DNA from: a virus
Taxonomy: Duplodnaviria; Heunggongvirae; Uroviricota; Caudoviricetes
Virus record (IMG/VR): IMGVR_UViG_2740892234_000006
Reading direction: 5' to 3' (one strand)
Length of the DNA: 5,037 nucleotides
The notes under the pieces were generated by a model. It made no database searches and was not told the origin of the DNA. It saw nothing but the letters and a program-made list of their open reading frames with translations. This document shows positions 1 through 5,037 of the stretch, one piece after another. Position 1 is the stretch's first letter, and every line of letters starts with the position of its first letter. The translations under genes and the position numbers were made by a program.

Positions 1-1
1 C

Positions 2-235
2 CGATTTGATGAACGCAATATTCACAAGCAATGCGTGGTGTGCAACCAACATAAAAGCGGAAATCTCGTTCCGTATCGCGTCGAACTGATTAACCGCATC
101 GGGCAGGAAGCAGTAGACGAAATCGAATCGAACCATAACCGCCATCGCTGGACTGTCGAAGAATGCAGGGCGATCAAGGCGAAGTATCAGCAGAAACTTA
201 AAGACCTGCGAAACAGCAGAAGTGAGGCCGCATGA
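2..235 (+). CDS. ninG: NinG (Rap-like) protein, C-terminal part; 5' end lies upstream of the window
   Basis: Frame is open from position 2 to the TGA at 233-235 (the ORF track shows only the M-initiated part 35-235). C-terminal sequence ...[13 protein letters not shown]...NHNRHRWT...[19 protein letters not shown] matches my recollection of lambda-family NinG. Stop overlaps the next start (ATGA), as in nin regions. Confidence 0.7.
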
Positions 236-426
236 CGTTCACAGTAAAAACCATTCCTGACATGCTCGTTGAGGCATATGAAAATCAGACCGAGGTAGCC
301 AGAATACTGAACTGTAGTCGCAACACGGTCAGAAAATACACTGGCGATAAAGAAGGGAAAAGACACGCTATCGTCAACGGTGTTCTTATGGTTCACCGCG
401 GATGGGGTAAAGATACTGATGCGTGA
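232..426 (+). CDS. ninH: NinH, small DNA-binding protein of the nin region
   Basis: 64-aa [61 protein letters not shown]..., close to lambda NinH as recalled ([24 protein letters not shown]...). Position between ninG and Q is the canonical order. Confidence 0.85.
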
Positions 427-853
427 TATCCGGCAGGTTCTTGAGCGCTGGGGGGCATGGGCGGCAAATAACTATGAGGATGTTACATGGTCGCCCATTG
501 CTGCCGGATTTAAGGGACTGATCCCCGAAAAAGTAAAATCACGTCCACAGTGCTGTGACGATGATGCGATGGTGATATGCGGGTGCATAGCCCGCCTTTA
601 CCGGAACAATCGCGATCTGCATGACTTGCTGGTTGATTATTACGTGTTGGGGGAGACGTTCATGGCGTTGGCACGGAAACATGGGTGCTCTGACACCTGT
701 ATAGGTAAACGCCTTCACAAAGCGGAGGGGATTGTTGAAGGCATGCTGATGATGCTGGGAGTGAGGCTTGAGATGGATCGGTATGTTGAGCGTGAATTGC
801 CGGGAGGGAGAACCTCTGTATTTTATCAGCGAAAAAATAGTTTACGATCGTAA
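419..853 (+). CDS. Q: Late-gene antitermination protein Q (short, 144-aa type as in phage 21/933W-like lambdoids)
   Basis: ORF track gives 380-853, but 380 is GTG. ATG at 419 overlaps the ninH stop (ATGCGTGA) and gives a 144-aa product [24 protein letters not shown]... with Cys-rich segment [18 protein letters not shown]. Followed by an AT-rich region, terminators and tRNAs as in Stx-phage Q regions. Start could be 380 (GTG); family subtype is from recall. Confidence 0.85.
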
Positions 854-900
854 AAATCTGCATATCATGATAAGAGTGGTTACATTGCCACGCAGTCGAA

Positions 901-923
901 CCCGCCGATGCGCGGGTTTTTTT
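901..923 (+). terminator. Intrinsic terminator-like hairpin 47 nt after the Q stop
   Basis: CCCGC (901-905) / GCGGG (912-916), 6-nt loop, then T7 (917-923). Confidence 0.55.
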
Positions 924-959
924 GTACCCCGAATCCTGTGAGCTATACGGAAAGTACAC

Positions 960-1100
960 AGAAAGGAAGGTGCGACCGTAATTAATAACAAAATCTTAAA
1001 AATCGCATATAGCACTATTAGTTTTCTAAATATTGTATATTTTAAGTATTGCAGGATAACCCTGTAACGAAGTTTGCGTAACAGCATTTTGCTCTACGAG
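960..1100 (+). promoter_or_regulatory. Candidate location of late promoter PR' and Q-utilisation (qut) site; exact -35/-10 not resolved
   Basis: AT-rich intergenic stretch between Q and a strong terminator, holding several weak sigma70-like hexamers (e.g. TTTTCT 1022-1027, TATATT 1036-1041, TAAGTA 1043-1048). In lambdoid phages PR' lies just downstream of Q and yields a short tR'-terminated RNA. Placement is inference. Confidence 0.3.
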
Positions 1101-1103
1101 TTT

Positions 1104-1132
1104 GCCAGCCTCCCCCAGTGGCTGGCTTTTTT
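1104..1132 (+). terminator. Strong intrinsic terminator, candidate tR'
   Basis: Perfect 7-bp stem GCCAGCC (1104-1110) / GGCTGGC (1120-1126), 9-nt loop, T6 (1127-1132). Confidence 0.7.
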
Positions 1133-1140
1133 ATGTCCGT

Positions 1141-1254
1141 AGCGTCAAAGCAGCAATGGCGCTAGGGCGTCGTGCAATTGGCGTTGAGCTGGAGAGCGGG
1201 CGTTTTGAGCAGACGGTCAGGGAAGTTCAGAATGTAGTCAGTCAGAACGGATGA
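1141..1254 (+). pseudogene. Remnant of the C-terminus of a DNA methyltransferase (no start codon)
   Basis: Frame open from 1060 to the TGA at 1252-1254 with no ATG/GTG start. Translation ...SVKAAMALGRRAIGVELESGRFEQTVREVQNVVSQNG* resembles the conserved ...GRRxIGxEL C-terminal motif of N6-A/N4-C DNA methyltransferases. Too short and start-less to be functional. Confidence 0.5.
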
Positions 1255-1256
1255 TA

Positions 1257-1285
1257 TTGCAGAATTAGTTACGTACCGTTATTAT
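1257..1285 (+). promoter_or_regulatory. Candidate sigma70 promoter for the tRNA cluster
   Basis: TTGCAG (1257-1262), 17-nt spacer, TATTAT (1280-1285), then a GC-rich stretch CCTGCGCCC before the mature tRNA 5' end at 1295, as is typical of stable-RNA promoters. Confidence 0.45.
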
Positions 1286-1294
1286 CCTGCGCCC

Positions 1295-1370
1295 GGCCCT
1301 TTAGCTCAGTGGTGAGAGCGAGCGACTCATAATCGCCAGGTCGCTGGTTCAAATCCAGCAAGGGCCACCA
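1295..1370 (+). tRNA. ileZ: tRNA with anticodon CAU, Ile2 (lysidine) type; alternatively elongator Met
   Basis: 76-nt cloverleaf: acceptor GGCCCTT/AAGGGCC, D arm GCTC-AGTGGTGA-GAGC, anticodon loop CTCATAA, T arm GCTGG-TTCAAAT-CCAGC, discriminator A, encoded CCA. Near-identical to E. coli ileX as recalled; an ileZ-like gene is known downstream of Q in Stx phages. Confidence 0.85.
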
Positions 1371-1377
1371 TCACATA

Positions 1378-1454
1378 CCGCCATTAGCTCATCGGGATAG
1401 AGCGTCAGCCTTCGAAGCTGGTTGCGCGGGGTTCGAGTCCTCGATGGCGGTCCA
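1378..1454 (+). tRNA. tRNA-Arg, anticodon UCG (decodes rare CGA/CGG)
   Basis: 77-nt cloverleaf: acceptor CCGCCAT/ATGGCGG (unusual C1-G72), D arm GCTC-ATCGGGATA-GAGC, anticodon stem TCAGC/GCTGG, loop CTTCGAA, T arm CGGGG-TTCGAGT-CCTCG, discriminator T, CCA. Confidence 0.8.
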
Positions 1455-1467
1455 TTATCTGCACACT

Positions 1468-1513
1468 GCGTTGTTAGCTCAGCCGGACAGAGCAATTGCC
1501 TTCTAAGCAATCG
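1468..1513 (+). tRNA. 5' portion of a tRNA-Arg(UCU) copy, cut by the N run
   Basis: GCGTTGT-TA-GCTC-AGCCGGACA-GAGC-A-ATTGC-CTTCTAA-GCAAT-CG then Ns. Identical to the 5' half of the tRNA at 1569-1645 except for one D-loop substitution. Confidence 0.55.
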
Positions 1514-1523
1514 NNNNNNNNNN
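1514..1523. other. Run of 10 N (gap or masked bases) inside a tRNA copy
   Basis: Directly visible; flanks belong to two different tRNA types. Confidence 0.95.
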
Positions 1524-1555
1524 CTGGCGGGGTTCAAGTCCCCGATGGCGGTCCA
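1524..1555 (+). tRNA. 3' portion of an Arg(UCG)-like tRNA copy (T arm and acceptor 3' strand) following the N run
   Basis: CGGGG-TTCAAGT-CCCCG-ATGGCGG-T-CCA. The acceptor 3' strand matches the Arg(UCG) tRNA at 1378-1454, not the 5' fragment before the gap, so the two fragments are from different tRNA types. Confidence 0.5.
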
Positions 1556-1568
1556 TTATCAGCATCAT

Positions 1569-1645
1569 GCGTTGTTAGCTCAGTCGGACAGAGCAATTGC
1601 CTTCTAAGCAATCGGTCACTGGTTCGAATCCAGTACAACGCGCCA
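1569..1645 (+). tRNA. tRNA-Arg, anticodon UCU (decodes rare AGA/AGG)
   Basis: 77-nt cloverleaf: acceptor GCGTTGT/ACAACGC, D arm GCTC-AGTCGGACA-GAGC, anticodon stem ATTGC/GCAAT, loop CTTCTAA, T arm ACTGG-TTCGAAT-CCAGT, discriminator G, CCA. Confidence 0.9.
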
Positions 1646-1659
1646 TATTTATTTACCAG

Positions 1660-1680
1660 GCTCGCTTTTGCGGGCTTTTT
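1660..1680 (+). terminator. Intrinsic terminator closing the tRNA cluster
   Basis: GGCTCGC-TTTT-GCGGGC hairpin (one T.G wobble) followed by T5. Confidence 0.65.
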
Positions 1681-1924
1681 ATTACAGGAAAGACACTGGA
1701 CAGTGAAATGTTAAATGCCTCACAATTCAGGCAGTTGATGATTGTCTGGTTGACGGAGAGTTGTTAAAAAAGTTTTGCATGGTGAATCCCCCTGAGCGGA
1801 GGGGCGACTGGTGACGGTATAATCTCTGATTATCAAAACGAGAATGACGAGGGTTTAGTGGCACCGGGCTGAACTCACCGGGAGGCACCCGGCACCATGC
1901 AATGGCACATAGCGCCACTCTCCA

Positions 1925-1948
1925 GCCCCTCTCCGGAGGGGCTTTCTT
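1925..1948 (+). terminator. Intrinsic terminator-like hairpin inside leader copy 1
   Basis: Perfect 7-bp stem GCCCCTC/GAGGGGC, loop TCCG, then TTTCTT. Directly followed by A6 and a second hairpin GCCCGCG...CGCGGGC (1961-1982), which reads as a terminator on the - strand. Confidence 0.5.
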
Positions 1949-2051
1949 ATGGACAAAAAAGCCCGCGCTGGGAGACGCGGGCGGCAAGGAATAAACAATG
2001 AAACGTGAAGTAATATTTCAGCTGGCGAATAATACCCTATAGTAATCACTC

Positions 2052-2073
2052 TGCGCAACTGCGCGACCTTTTT
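2052..2073 (+). terminator. Weaker terminator-like hairpin with T5 inside leader copy 1
   Basis: TGCGC-AACT-GCGCG stem then TTTTT. Homologous to the stronger copy-2 hairpin at 3979-4004. Confidence 0.4.
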
Positions 2074-2187
2074 CGAATTGCGGGCTGTAGTCTCCCTTCT
2101 GCCATTGTCCTGTAACTTCCGGACTTCAGCCCGCTCCTTATTTTACTCACAATATTATCCCGGCCGGGAGGATTCATGGCATTTAAA

Positions 2188-2197
2188 NNNNNNNNNN
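2188..2197. other. Run of 10 N cutting a DUF1737-type gene after its 4th codon
   Basis: Directly visible; downstream flank is a terminator resembling the one at 1660-1680. Confidence 0.95.
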
Positions 2198-2199
2198 TT

Positions 2200-2224
2200 G
2201 GCTCGCTTTTGCGGGCCTTTTTTT
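2200..2224 (+). terminator. Intrinsic terminator
   Basis: GGCTCGC-TTTT-GCGGGCC (7-bp stem, one wobble) then T7. Nearly the same sequence as the terminator at 1660-1680. Confidence 0.7.
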
Positions 2225-2276
2225 GTATCTGCGTTACACCATTAACTAATAAATCGAGTGCTTATCAGGAGGCTAT

Positions 2277-2501
2277 GTGAAAAAACTGATGGTGACGATT
2301 GGTCCGTTCGAAACAGAAGTTAGTTTTCGTGTTGTTCAGGGGGAGAGTGTACTTGTTGAAGATGTATTTCATGGAAAATCAACAGGTCCTTATGTAAAAG
2401 AATATCTTATCGACGCCACGGATGAAAATATTGAGGTGGTGTACGATTCCGTCAATCACCCTGATTTGATCATTAAGGCAAAATTGAAGCCACTTTATTG
2501 A
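2277..2501 (+). CDS. Hypothetical small acidic protein (74 aa), no recognised family
   Basis: ORF with GTG start 4 nt after AGGAGG (2267-2272); alternative ATG at 2289. Product MKKLMVTIGPFETEVSFRVVQGESVLVEDVFHGK... has about 12 acidic and 8 basic residues. Lies between two intrinsic terminators. Confidence 0.5.
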   Translation: MKKLMVTIGPFETEVSFRVVQGESVLVEDVFHGKSTGPYVKEYLIDATDENIEVVYDSVNHPDLIIKAKLKPLY

Positions 2502-2553
2502 TCTGACCGGGAGCAATCATAAAATATCTCTGGGTACCCACAAGGAGATAAAT

Positions 2554-2763
2554 ATGTTTGTTTCTGAAGTGTTAATGGAAGATAAGGACAACAAAGGATG
2601 GGTTAAAGGTTGGGCTGTGGTAAGAAGCTCGCCCTGGCATCTTGTTGGGGTTTTTGCGACAGAGGAAGACGCAGAAACGGAAGCAAGAAAGATGGGAGAT
2701 AAGTACGAGGTTCACTATGGCTCGCATCGAACAGGAAGTGATGATTTTGTCTGGGGGGAGTAA
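2554..2763 (+). CDS. Hypothetical small acidic Trp-rich protein (69 aa), no recognised family
   Basis: ATG preceded by strong RBS AAGGAG (2542-2547, 6-nt spacing). Product MFVSEVLMEDKDNKGWVKGWAVVRSSPWHLVGVFATEEDAETEARKMGDKYEVHYGSHRTGSDDFVWGE has about 14 acidic and 8 basic residues and 4 Trp. Followed by a terminator at 2798-2820. Confidence 0.6.
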   Translation: MFVSEVLMEDKDNKGWVKGWAVVRSSPWHLVGVFATEEDAETEARKMGDKYEVHYGSHRTGSDDFVWGE

Positions 2764-2797
2764 CAGTCGTTTAACCCCAGAATAATCCCGTAACTGA

Positions 2798-2820
2798 GGT
2801 CGCTATTGGCGGCCTTTTTT
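2798..2820 (+). terminator. Intrinsic terminator
   Basis: GGTCGC-TATTG-GCGGCC (6-bp stem, one wobble) then T6. Followed by GTATCCGCG, similar to the GTATCTGCG linker after the terminator at 2200-2224. Confidence 0.65.
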
Positions 2821-2952
2821 GTATCCGCGCCACGCCCGGCGCATATCAACCACAGAGCCTTTCGGGGGTGAGCTTACGGAGTGGTCAGTGTGACTTTCTC
2901 TGTGGGCAGATCGCTCCCGGGCGTTGGCTCACCCACCCAAAGGAACGTCACG

Positions 2953-3111
2953 ATGTTTGGTATTTTTGGTAAAAAAAGCCCGCAGAGCGGCAACGGAAAT
3001 TAAAAAGTTTGAAAAACGCGATCTGGCACAGGTGGTGATTAACGCCGCCTACCTGGTGGCCTATGCAGATGGTGAATGTGAGGCTTCCTAGAAAGCGAAG
3101 ATCGAACAGGT
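2953..3111 (+). pseudogene. Degenerate partial copy of the TerB-like gene (start codon present, then frameshift and in-frame TAG)
   Basis: ATG 2953 with RBS AAAGGAA gives MFGIFGKKSPQSGNGN* (stop 3001-3003). The following ~120 nt are ~90% identical to 3122-3243 but in a different frame, consistent with an extra A in the A7 run at 2971-2977, and carry TCC TAG (3086-3091) where the downstream copy has TCA GAG. Could also reflect low-quality contig-end sequence. Confidence 0.45.
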
Positions 3112-3121
3112 NNNNNNNNNN
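3112..3121. other. Run of 10 N between two partial copies of the TerB-like gene
   Basis: Directly visible. Confidence 0.95.
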
Positions 3122-3136
3122 GCCCGCCGAGCGGCA

Positions 3137-3535
3137 GTGGAAATTAAAAAGTTTGAGAAACGTGATCTGGCACAGGCGGTTATTAATGCTGCCTATCTGG
3201 TGGCCTATGCAGATGGTGAATGTGAGGCTTCAGAGAAAGCGAAGATCGAGCAGATCTTGCGTAACCAGCCTGCGTTGTCCGCGTTTACGTCAGAAATTAA
3301 TGCGATTAGCGCAACCATTATCGGTCAGCTGGATACGAACTTTAAAATTGGTCGTCGAGCGGCATTGCGTGAAATTGAAGATGTGAAACACGATACGCGT
3401 GAAGCGGAAGATGTGCTGGATGTGGCGGTGGCCATTGCGGAGGCAGACGGCGAAATTGAGCCGGAAGAGCGCAAGGTGCTGGAAGAGATTGCCGGTGTTC
3501 TGGGTCTTCGTCTGGAGAATTACCTGTTACGGTAA
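3137..3535 (+). CDS. TerB-like (tellurite-resistance TerB family) acidic protein; 5' end uncertain because the frame is open back to the N run at 3121
   Basis: ORF ...EIKKFEKRDLAQAVINAAYLVAYADGECEASEKAKIEQIL...AVAIAEADGEIEPEERKVLEEIAGVLGL... contains two A-x-ADGE-x-E repeats typical of TerB-family domains, as recalled. The true N-terminus is probably MFGIFGKK..., as in the upstream degenerate copy. Confidence 0.6.
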   Translation: MEIKKFEKRDLAQAVINAAYLVAYADGECEASEKAKIEQILRNQPALSAFTSEINAISATIIGQLDTNFKIGRRAALREIEDVKHDTREAEDVLDVAVAIAEADGEIEPEERKVLEEIAGVLGLRLENYLLR

Positions 3536-3860
3536 AACTGCGCCTGACTGTGGCTGCACTCCTGCTGTTTCTGGTGGTGATGGTGGATTTCACCAGCAGA
3601 ATCATGTCGGTGCTGGCGGATGGGGTGCTGGTCTGCGGCATTATGGTATTGCTGTGGCCGGTGATAAAAAGAAACAGCCTGCATAATGCTTGATTTTTTT
3701 ATTTGCTGTTTATTAAAAATACTACTGCATGGTGAATCCCCCTGTGCGGTGGGGCAATCAGCAAGAAGGAATATGGGGTAATCGCGGATTCAGGTGCTGA
3801 TACTGAATTCACCGGGAGGCACCCGGCACCATGCAAGAAAAAGAATGTGCATGCAAACAT

Positions 3861-3886
3861 GCCCCTCTCCGGAGGGGCATTTTTTA
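3861..3886 (+). terminator. Intrinsic terminator-like hairpin inside leader copy 2
   Basis: GCCCCTC-TCCG-GAGGGGC then ATTTTTT. Followed by A6 and hairpin GCCCGAA-TGGG-TTCGGGC (3899-3916), which reads as a terminator on the - strand. Confidence 0.55.
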
Positions 3887-3978
3887 TGGGTAAAAAATGC
3901 CCGAATGGGTTCGGGCAATAGCATGAGATACTGATATTGTTGTGTTGTTATCGTGTGGATTTTAACCAGGGTTTATCA

Positions 3979-4004
3979 GGCTGCGCAACTGCGTGGCCTT
4001 TTTT
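3979..4004 (+). terminator. Intrinsic terminator inside leader copy 2
   Basis: GGCTGCGC-AACT-GCGTGGCC (8-bp stem with two G.U wobbles) then T6. Confidence 0.6.
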
Positions 4005-4100
4005 CATTTCTTGGGCTGTAGTCCCCGTGTGTCATTCAGGCTTCCGGACTACAGCCCACTCCATATCTGATTTAATACACTATCCCGGCCGGGAGGAATA

Positions 4101-4155
4101 ATGACATTTAAACATTATGATGTTGTCAGGGCGGCGTCGCCGTCAGACCTTGCGG
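4101..4155 (+). CDS. 5' fragment of a DUF1737-type gene (nanS-p paralogue), cut after 18 codons by the N run
   Basis: RBS GGGAGGA then ATG; MTFKHYDVVRAASPSDLA... matches the N-terminus of the downstream gene (MSIKHYDVIRAASPSDLAEK...). Confidence 0.5.
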
Positions 4156-4165
4156 NNNNNNNNNN
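4156..4165. other. Run of 10 N cutting a DUF1737-type gene after 18 codons
   Basis: Directly visible; the last 29 nt before the gap are identical to 4347-4375 in the downstream nanS-p gene. Confidence 0.95.
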
Positions 4166-4208
4166 ATTTCTGTTTTTCTCAAACTATCATCGTTATCCCT
4201 TTATTTTC

Positions 4209-4235
4209 GGCTGCGCATGGCGCGGCCTTTTTTTT
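4209..4235 (+). terminator. Intrinsic terminator
   Basis: GGCTGCGC-ATG-GCGCGGCC (8-bp stem, one wobble) then T8. Confidence 0.65.
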
Positions 4236-4321
4236 ACGACCAGCCACTGGCAGATGGTCATCCTGTGATTTGATTCCGCTTCCGGCTTTTTAACTCTGTT
4301 CCTCTACACGGGAGAAATTCG

Positions 4322-5037
4322 ATGTCGATTAAACATTACGATGTTATCAGGGCGGCGTCGCCGTCAGACCTTGCGGAAAAGCTGACACACAAACTGAAAG
4401 AGGGCTGGCAGCCATACGGCGGACCGGTTGCCATTACGCCGTACACACTGATGCAGGCGGTGGCTATTGAAGGAGAGCCACAGGTCGGCCCTTCATCTGA
4501 GCCGGATTGGTACTACGTCATCGTACTGGCCGGGCAGTCCAATGCCATGGCTTACGGTGAAGGGCTTCCGCTGCCGGATTCATACGATGCTCCGGATCCG
4601 CGCATTAAACAGCTGGCGCGCCGCAGTACAGTGACGCCGGGCGGGGCTGTCTGCAGATATAACGATATTATTCCGGCTGACCACTGTCTGCATGATGTGC
4701 AGGATATGAGTACGCTGAATCATCCGAGGGCTGACCTGAGCAAAGGGCAGTACGGCTGTGTCGGCCAGGGTTTACATATTGCCAAAAAACTGCTCCCGTA
4801 TATCCCGAATAACGCGGGGATCCTGCTGGTACCATGCTGTCGTGGTGGTTCGGCATTTACCCAGGGCGCGGAGGGGACATTCAGCGAGTCCACGGGGGCC
4901 AGTCAGGATTCGGCACGCTGGGGAGTGGGCAAGCCGTTATATCAGGATCTGATTTCCCGCACAAAAGCGGCATTGCAGAAAAATCCCAAAAACGTTCTGC
5001 TGGCCGTCTGCTGGATGCAGGGTGAGTTTGACATGAG
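4322..5037 (+). CDS. nanS-p: Prophage sialate O-acetylesterase, NanS-p-like (N-terminal DUF1737 domain plus SASA esterase domain); 3' end beyond the window
   Basis: ATG 4322 with RBS GGGAGA. Frame 2 stays open to the window end, which is why it is absent from the ORF track. N-terminus MSIKHYDVIRAASPSDLAEKLTHKLKEGWQPYGGPVAITPYTLMQAVAIEGE is DUF1737-like; the GQSN motif (4532-4543, ...VLAGQSNAMAYGEG...) is the catalytic-serine signature of SASA-family esterases. This gene class sits downstream of stx2 in Stx phages (recall). Confidence 0.8.
   Translation, partial: MSIKHYDVIRAASPSDLAEKLTHKLKEGWQPYGGPVAITPYTLMQAVAIEGEPQVGPSSEPDWYYVIVLAGQSNAMAYGEGLPLPDSYDAPDPRIKQLARRSTVTPGGAVCRYNDIIPADHCLHDVQDMSTLNHPRADLSKGQYGCVGQGLHIAKKLLPYIPNNAGILLVPCCRGGSAFTQGAEGTFSESTGASQDSARWGVGKPLYQDLISRTKAALQKNPKNVLLAVCWMQGEFDM

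Follow-up and report, generated by a model that had tools for sequence, protein, structure and literature searches.

An apparent tRNA gene duplication beside a scaffold gap very probably represents alternative alleles of the known ileZ-argN-argO cluster of lambdoid prophages

The window, i.e. the whole stretch of 5037 bases that was analysed, very probably holds one copy of the known ileZ-argN-argO cluster, and the partial duplication seen in it would be an artefact that arose when the alleles of at least two prophages were placed in series. The initial annotation had proposed an Arg(UCG)-Arg(UCU) unit that is repeated in tandem, with a chimeric copy between the two arginine tRNA genes. The copies were found to be alternative alleles of one stretch.

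ARAGORN predicted three intact tRNA genes in the window, which are listed here with the sources for each.

1295 to 1370, plus strand: ileZ, a tRNA-Ile2-like gene with anticodon CAU and encoded CCA (ARAGORN, Rfam, ileZ of 933W, ileX of K-12, RefSeq).
1378 to 1454, plus strand: argN, tRNA-Arg(UCG), with C1-G72, U73 and encoded CCA, allele A (ARAGORN and Rfam; 100% identical to E. coli O111 11128).
1569 to 1645, plus strand: argO, tRNA-Arg(UCU), with encoded CCA (ARAGORN, Rfam, argO of 933W, argU of K-12).

These coordinates and anticodons agree exactly with those given in the initial annotation. The Rfam tRNA scores are 72.5 bits for the CAU gene, 53.6 bits for the Arg(UCG) gene and 71.7 bits for the Arg(UCU) gene, and the check by prediction software that had been suggested recovered all three cloverleafs with both ARAGORN and Rfam, with the anticodons as read. 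Clusters of the 933W type were defined by the order CAU-UCG-UCU on a single strand and by spacers of 7-9 and 13 nt. In the window, ileZ, argN and argO have the order CAU, UCG, UCU on one strand, and the spacers are 7 and 13 nt after the overlap described below had been collapsed. The label “Met”, which ARAGORN gives to the CAU tRNA, is derived from the anticodon alone.

The proposal that the CAU tRNA is Ile2-like is borne out by its identity to ileX of E. coli K-12 (68 of 76 positions) and by RefSeq, in which the matching CAU gene is labelled tRNA-Ile. Judging from its sequence, the body of the tRNA resembles ileX and ileY, unlike the elongator or initiator Met tRNAs. The acceptor stem, GGCCCUU/AAGGGCC, has kept both C4-G69 and C5-G68, which are reportedly determinants for TilS; one pair of the stem is changed on both sides relative to ileX, i.e. 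from C6-G67 to U6-A67. The identity elements for the E. coli ArgRS are A20 and C35, the D-loop being numbered after E. coli tRNA-Arg. C35 was read directly in the sequences of argN and argO, and by analogy an A would occupy position 20 in the two D-loops, AUCGGGAUA and AGUCGGACA.

For comparison, the three genes were aligned with those of phage 933W (AF125520.1). The fractions of identical positions are 76/76 for ileZ, 74/77 for argN and 75/77 for argO, and the alignment from pR′ through ileZ has no indels and a single mismatch. The GenBank record of 933W annotates pR′, qut, pT, ileZ (AUA), argN (CGH; CGG?) and argO (AGA; AGG?), the question marks on CGG and AGG decoding being the depositors' own. 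Of 5426 finished E. coli genomes, 3062 have a match to the cluster, and as many as 13 copies occur in a single genome. In 30 of 30 cases among the matches listed, it spans 340-348 bp, versus 441 in the window, and comprises one tRNA-Ile and two tRNA-Arg genes. By its sequence, the trio is thus the already known ileZ-argN-argO rare-codon cluster, because the 933W record annotates it and thousands of E. coli genomes carry it. A full-text search of the literature returned nothing relevant that uses the names ileZ, argN or argO for tRNAs of Stx phages.

The window is the late-control region of an E. coli lambdoid prophage. The order of its features is NinG, NinH, Q, pR′, qut, two terminators, a methylase remnant, pT, the tRNAs, a terminator, STnc100 and the start of nanS-p. 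The following features around the cluster were assigned, partly by reference to 933W and to a finished locus of E. coli O111:H- 11128 (L001).

380 to 853, plus strand: the gene for antiterminator Q (157 aa), the late-gene activator upstream of the tRNAs (open reading frame; length and position as in Q of 933W; RefSeq “antiterminator Q family protein” in O111 11128).
841 to 868, plus strand: pR′, putative late promoter (933W annotation by gap-free alignment, identical sequence; promoter-like match at 841-868).
882 to 889, plus strand: qut, the Q-utilisation site (position as annotated in 933W; locus L127 and the window are offset by 300 and have no indels here).
898 to 926, plus strand: intrinsic terminator tR′ downstream of pR′ (hairpin at 898-919 and a T run; “possible rho-independent terminator” in 933W).
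1103 to 1132, plus strand: second terminator-like hairpin upstream of the tRNAs (GCCAGCC...GGCTGGC followed by T6; 933W annotation, identical sequence).
1141 to 1254, plus strand: C-terminal remnant of a DNA methyltransferase, pseudogene (RefSeq pseudogene in O111 11128, L001 4882-4995).
1257 to 1285, plus strand: pT, putative promoter of the tRNA genes (annotation by the 933W depositors; one mismatch in the stretch).
1658 to 1685, plus strand: intrinsic terminator after the tRNA cluster (hairpin at 1658-1677 and a T run; 933W has a terminator at the same place).

A consensus promoter scan of the window did not recover pT. The nanS-p gene, which encodes a SASA esterase, begins at the end of contig 2 (the coding sequence starts at L001 5816, and contig 2 corresponds to L001 5167-5827). 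The cluster is thus located between Q, pR′ and qut on one side and late-region cargo (stx or nanS-p) on the other.

The apparent fourth tRNA lies between the two arginine tRNA genes and is built as the initial annotation had described it, i.e. from the 5′ half of an Arg(UCU) tRNA, ten N and the 3′ end of an Arg(UCG) tRNA. More precisely, the 5′ 46 nt of argO (1468-1513) are followed by the N run (1514-1523) and by a 3′ part of argN (1524-1555). The features at this place are as follows.

1422 to 1483, plus strand: arm A, 62 nt, from the variable loop of argN to position 16 of argO, delimited by the first and last bases that differ from allele B.
1468 to 1513, plus strand: the allele A version of the first 46 nt of argO, with which contig 1 stops (100% identical to O111 11128).
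1468 to 1555, plus strand: the chimeric “fourth tRNA”, not a gene (predicted by both ARAGORN and Rfam although it includes the N run).
1514 to 1523, no strand: gap 1, a scaffold join of ten N, behind which the sequence resumes 88 nt further back in the reference.
1524 to 1584, plus strand: arm B, 61 nt, comprising the argN 3′ part (1524-1555), the spacer (1556-1568) and the first 16 nt of argO, from a second prophage type.

ARAGORN calls the chimera as an 88-nt “tRNA-Arg(UCU)” that includes the ten N, and Rfam gives it 40.9 bits. The two differences in the T arm of the right-hand argN fragment that had been noted earlier are both present: G57 of the loop is replaced by A, and U63 of the stem by C, which turns a G.U into a G-C pair. 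To these has to be added a difference in the variable loop, which reads CTG-G in the fragment versus TTGCG. The two 13-nt spacers had been described as near-identical, which does not hold, as only 9 of 13 positions agree. When the overlap is collapsed, ARAGORN no longer calls a tRNA at 1468-1555. The chimeric fourth tRNA is an assembly artefact and not a gene.

The window consists of five contigs that are joined by four runs of ten N, at positions 1514, 2188, 3112 and 4156. The best match in a finished genome spans only about 3430 bases, compared with the 5037 bases of the window. Three of the gaps are flanked by imperfect repeats, i.e. 88 nt with 92% identity at gap 1, 132 nt with 90% at gap 3 and 55 nt with 91% at gap 4, and at each of them the end of the left contig reappears inside the next contig. 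Behind gap 2, the next contig begins again at the terminator that follows argO. Contig 1 (1-1513) corresponds to L001 3742-5254 of E. coli O111:H- 11128 with 99.9% identity, and contig 2 (1524-2187) maps to 5167-5827 of the same locus, so that the two contigs overlap by 88 nt on one finished locus. At gap 3 the flanks step back by 132 nt, and the contigs jump between two prophage types. That all four runs have exactly ten N would also fit 10-base masks over continuous real sequence. However, a mask of ten bases would leave the flanks colinear, and therefore the N runs are joins; given the step-backs at gap 1 (88 nt) and gap 3 (132 nt) and the jump between prophage types, the idea of masks was rejected as barely credible.

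The two arms differ at six aligned columns. In finished genomes, both are preceded by ...GAAGCTGG (to 1421 in the window) and followed by CGGACAGAGC..., and the intact argO of the window is composite, with 1569-1584 coming from arm B and the sequence from 1585 on being common to allele A. To the left of the gap, allele A is 100% identical to O111 11128, argN included. The segment 1524-1600 (77 nt), which contains arm B, agrees at every position (100%) with the single cluster of strain 2013C-3264, and its identity to the cluster in the second prophage of O111 E2855 is 98.7%. The latter strain carries both allele types, in two prophages that are 1.3 Mb apart. In 2013C-3264, the arm B allele is followed downstream by two small open reading frames, a TerB-family gene, a DUF3927 gene and nanS-p, which is the content of contigs 3-5 of the window. 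The reads therefore included two or more prophage types, the pieces of which alternate along the scaffold: arm B and the content of contigs 3-5 correspond to 2013C-3264, and contig 1 to O111 11128.

The positions of the contig ends are equally informative. Behind its last allele-specific base (1483), contig 1 continues for exactly 30 nt, and these 30 nt are repeated at 1585-1614. The end of contig 4 shows the same 30-nt pattern relative to contig 5, so that two of the four contig ends carry the signature; it is absent at the ends of contigs 2 and 3 against the alleles compared. In a library of 120 viral contigs and the finished loci, the copies vary at the position 31 nt from the end of contig 1, with C in 94 and T in 15 of them, and do not vary at the neighbouring positions. 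Each of the four contigs that follow a gap begins directly behind a 30-mer, with a base that is different in another allele. As background, 4.0% of the window positions follow a branching 30-mer, which gives a chance of about 2.5e-6 that all four starts have this property. The contig boundaries are the signature of nodes of a de Bruijn graph with k=31 that were printed serially with a minimum gap. The assembler was probably “Velvet-like, k=31, minimum gap 10 N”, as the 30-nt overlaps would fit the behaviour of that program.

When 1514-1614 was deleted, i.e. the N run, arm B and the second copy of the 30 shared nt, the collapsed sequence of 2086 nt had two mismatches to O111:H- 11128. Both are near position 50 and none is in the tRNA region, and ARAGORN predicts three tRNAs in this sequence.

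The following course of events would account for these observations. The source genome, or less probably the sample, would contain two or more lambdoid prophages, whose copies of the cluster differ slightly. An assembler of the de Bruijn type with k=31 would have kept both versions of the differing stretch of 61-62 nt. The scaffolder would then have set the upstream sequence with arm A and the 30 shared nt before arm B with the shared part of argO and the downstream sequence, with ten N between them. The true locus would be 1-1513 joined straight to 1615 onward.

The same artefact could also have arisen from alleles of two co-sequenced strains, or of a mixed culture or sample, since the graph signatures show only that two alleles were in the read set. 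This origin appears unlikely. Finished genomes of the EHEC type routinely carry multiple copies of the cluster, up to the 13 mentioned above, the chromosome of O111 E2855 contains both allele types, and all five contigs fit two prophage types that are known to coexist.

A real tandem array, ileZ-argN-argO-argN′-argO′, in which the gap hides the junction from argO to argN′, could also be read from the sequence on either side of the gap, and short-read assemblers do break at tandem repeats. It would, however, require that junction, which is in no contig: in the window there is only N at that place, and a search with two patterns for the 3′ end of argO followed by the 5′ end of argN, with 0-30 nt allowed between them, returned 0 cases in IMG/VR viral contigs, JGI metagenome contigs and GTDB genome contigs. 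In contrast, the normal junction from argN to argO, which served as the control, was found in at least 120 viral contigs, exactly once in each. Every finished genome inspected also has a single argN-to-argO junction, and one unit is present in all finished genomes among the matches listed. Arm B travels with the cargo of contig 3 in another prophage type. The other gaps show the same overlaps or step-backs and the same starts at branch points, which one local duplication cannot explain, and the collapsed overlap reproduces a finished genome.

One observation that a real tandem could accommodate is that the combination of arm B with the downstream sequence of allele A is unseen in finished genomes; no exact match was found in the viral, genome and metagenome collections either, where a 152-nt string of contig 2 was looked for, and the best matches had 98.9-99.1% identity. 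This combination is consistent with a chimeric path through the graph, and also with a strain-specific recombinant. Taken together, a real tandem is very improbable, and the tandemly repeated unit proposed initially gives way to two alleles of one cluster.

A viral contig with two clusters 2.6 kb apart (L098) was considered as a precedent for a real duplication and was rejected: the matching finished genomes have a single cluster, and of the query, which is about 2926 bases long, the match spans about 2565 bases. The double cluster thus appears to stem from a similar fault of draft assembly.

The C1-G72 pair that had been noted in the Arg(UCG) tRNA is real and was read from the acceptor stem, 5′-CCGCCAU/AUGGCGG-3′, which is followed by U73 and CCA. 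C1-G72 is uncommon among E. coli tRNAs and is a typical feature of tRNA-Pro; the initiator tRNA has C1xA72. C1 is invariant over the 26 argN alleles examined; the search pattern with which the copies were gathered itself prescribes G72 and U73. The cloverleaf is paired in 99.6% of the cells over the 26 alleles, and the allelic variation is in loops or changes G-C to G.U. Covariation lends no support to the fold, because none of the 26 alleles has a pair that is changed on both sides, i.e. a double compensatory change. C1-G72 appears to be a fixed trait of argN, a gene that has been in the databases for decades, and it is no peculiarity of the window. The base before C1, at position -1, is A in 84 of 84 intact copies, and it could pair with U73. 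It is conceivable, and in our estimate distinctly improbable, that C1-G72, U73 and A(-1) together mark an unusual 5′ maturation, with an acceptor helix of 8 bp as in tRNA-His, or an unusual charging. If this were true, argN may not simply be another Arg isoacceptor.

To address the demand for the cognate codons, we compared codon frequencies (per 1000 codons), the prophage of a finished relative (O111) and stx2AB of 933W being used in place of the source genome.

38 core genes of K-12: ATA 3.0, AGA 1.1, AGG 0.7, CGA 3.4, CGG 4.0.
35 early/regulatory genes of the O111 prophage: ATA 14.9, AGA 15.3, AGG 7.4, CGA 10.2, CGG 8.4.
30 late-region genes of the O111 prophage: ATA 7.1, AGA 8.0, AGG 5.3, CGA 5.2, CGG 9.3.
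stx2AB of 933W: ATA 36.8, AGA 14.7, AGG 4.9, CGA 4.9, CGG 7.4.

In stx2AB, ATA represents 68% of the Ile codons. A codon-usage analysis had been suggested as a check, and AUA, AGA, AGG and CGA were indeed found to be enriched in the genes of the O111 prophage and in stx2AB versus the K-12 core genes. Together with the near-identity to the genes annotated in 933W, this enrichment of cognate codons upholds the initial description of the genes as a phage tRNA cluster for rare codons. The richness of the prophage and of stx2 in these four codons agrees with the accepted role.

Sequence, identity to known genes, gene order and codon bias are observations; for expression, modification and charging of the tRNAs, knowledge of these families leads to the following expectations. 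The cluster would lie on the Q-dependent late transcript and may in addition have its own promoter, the putative pT; therefore, the tRNAs would be expected to rise on induction of the prophage, by Q-dependent read-through and perhaps from pT. The host TilS would convert C34 of ileZ to lysidine, which would enable decoding of AUA. With its UCG anticodon, argN would supply decoding of CGA and CGG, and argO may top up the scarce argU-type tRNA for AGA and AGG.

Biologically, the cluster adds little, as it has been annotated since the 933W genome and is present in thousands of E. coli genomes. The main consequence of the analysis concerns draft scaffolds, in which repeats that touch an N run should be treated as unmerged alternative contigs, and not as copy-number variation, until shown otherwise. 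ARAGORN and Rfam/Infernal both call the chimera across the gap, and therefore automated annotation over-counts tRNA genes. The same artefact inflates the window from about 3.4 to 5.0 kb, with apparent duplicates of the TerB-family gene and of the start of nanS-p.

Compared with known systems, the cluster is closest in layout to that of 933W and related Stx/lambdoid prophages, which have the same three genes in the same order, spacing and strand. As in 933W, it follows Q, pR′, qut, two terminators, the methylase remnant and pT. In contrast to 933W, it is followed by the STnc100 sRNA and nanS-p, as in O111 11128, and not by stx2AB, and a few allelic bases differ. With ileX of K-12, in which CAU is read as lysidine-AU, and with argU (UCU), ileZ and argO share the anticodons and the predicted decoding of AUA and AGA, whereas argO is identical to argU at only 57 of 77 positions. 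A further difference from these two host tRNAs is that argN has C1-G72 and U73. To our knowledge, K-12 is devoid of a UCG isoacceptor and reads CGA with an ICG tRNA and CGG with a CCG tRNA, and therefore argN would add an anticodon that is absent from the host.

False tandem alleles that flank scaffold gaps are said to occur in eukaryotic draft assemblies. The likeness to the window is close: two copies with 92% identity abut an N run, the flanks are common, and collapsing restores the reference. In contrast to the eukaryotic cases, the alleles of the window are most likely paralogous prophage copies and not diploid haplotypes, and the repeat is only about 90 nt long.

Lastly, phage-borne tRNAs match codons that are commoner in the phage than in the host, according to Bailly-Bechet et al. 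2007 (cited in PMC7946995). The tRNAs of the window resemble phage tRNA sets in general in this respect. They differ in forming a small set of three genes, in a temperate phage and beside a toxin or cargo locus, rather than a large set of the kind found in virulent phages.

The window (1-5037) is a chain of five short contigs, joined by four runs of 10 N (gaps 1-4), that originate from at least two prophage types. It exceeds the matching region in any finished genome, which spans about 3430 bases, by about 1.6 kb. The joins and the elements distributed among the contigs are as follows:

1514-1523, 10 N (gap 1)
1749-1954, + strand, STnc100 small RNA family, copy 1 (158 bits), contig 2
2176-2187, start of nanS-p (SASA esterase), first occurrence
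2188-2197, 10 N (gap 2)
2924-3091, TerB-family gene, left copy
3112-3121, 10 N (gap 3)
3137-3535, TerB-family gene, right copy
3701-3891, + strand, STnc100 small RNA family, copy 2 (139 bits), contig 4
3892-3953, - strand, AgvB, an anti-GcvB small RNA (96.5 bits), contig 4
4101-4155, start of nanS-p, second occurrence
4156-4165, 10 N (gap 4)
4322-4376, start of nanS-p, third occurrence

The three nanS-p starts represent different alleles, each of which adjoins a gap or lies close to one, and these apparent duplicates are a product of the scaffold. The two TerB-family copies, one on each side of gap 3, are 90% identical across 132 nt; the left copy contains an in-frame TAG, and the right copy has GAG at the equivalent place. 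This pair looks like an artefact of uncollapsed alleles, as does the duplication in the tRNA region, and one of the two alleles is perhaps a pseudogene belonging to another prophage. Both STnc100 copies and AgvB are located 3′ of the tRNA cluster. These small RNAs are split between contigs 2 and 4 and, therefore, probably originate from two different prophages.

Among the 120 viral contigs listed, the middle gene, flanked by ileZ and argO, is degenerate in about one third of the clusters (L008, 2719-2818, and 39 other contigs), and neither ARAGORN nor Rfam yielded a tRNA call for it. The 5′ and 3′ ends of argN are retained, the anticodon region is replaced, and a G tract varies in length from 5 to about 14 G. 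Such pseudo-argN alleles are widespread in the population. Contig L098 carries two tRNA clusters (9756-10012 and 12355-12604) separated by 2.6 kb, with the degenerate argN in the first. The double cluster is probably another draft-assembly misjoin because the matching finished genomes contain only one cluster.

Three further variants were each seen in a single viral contig:

L018, 2133-2209, argN with the anticodon UCU instead of UCG
L078, 13661-13737, argN with the anticodon GCG
L066, 7134-7209, ileZ position with the anticodon read as CGU

These changed anticodons could be real shifts or else sequencing errors in draft genomes.

In all 84 intact argN copies examined, C1 is preceded by an A (window position 1377), which could pair with U73 (1451) to yield an acceptor helix of 8 bp. 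The argO alleles differ at position 37 (window position 1605), directly adjoining the anticodon: the window and E. coli O111:H- 11128 have an A (CTTCTAA), whereas phage 933W and E2863 have a G (CTTCTGA), a difference that could affect the modification of base 37.
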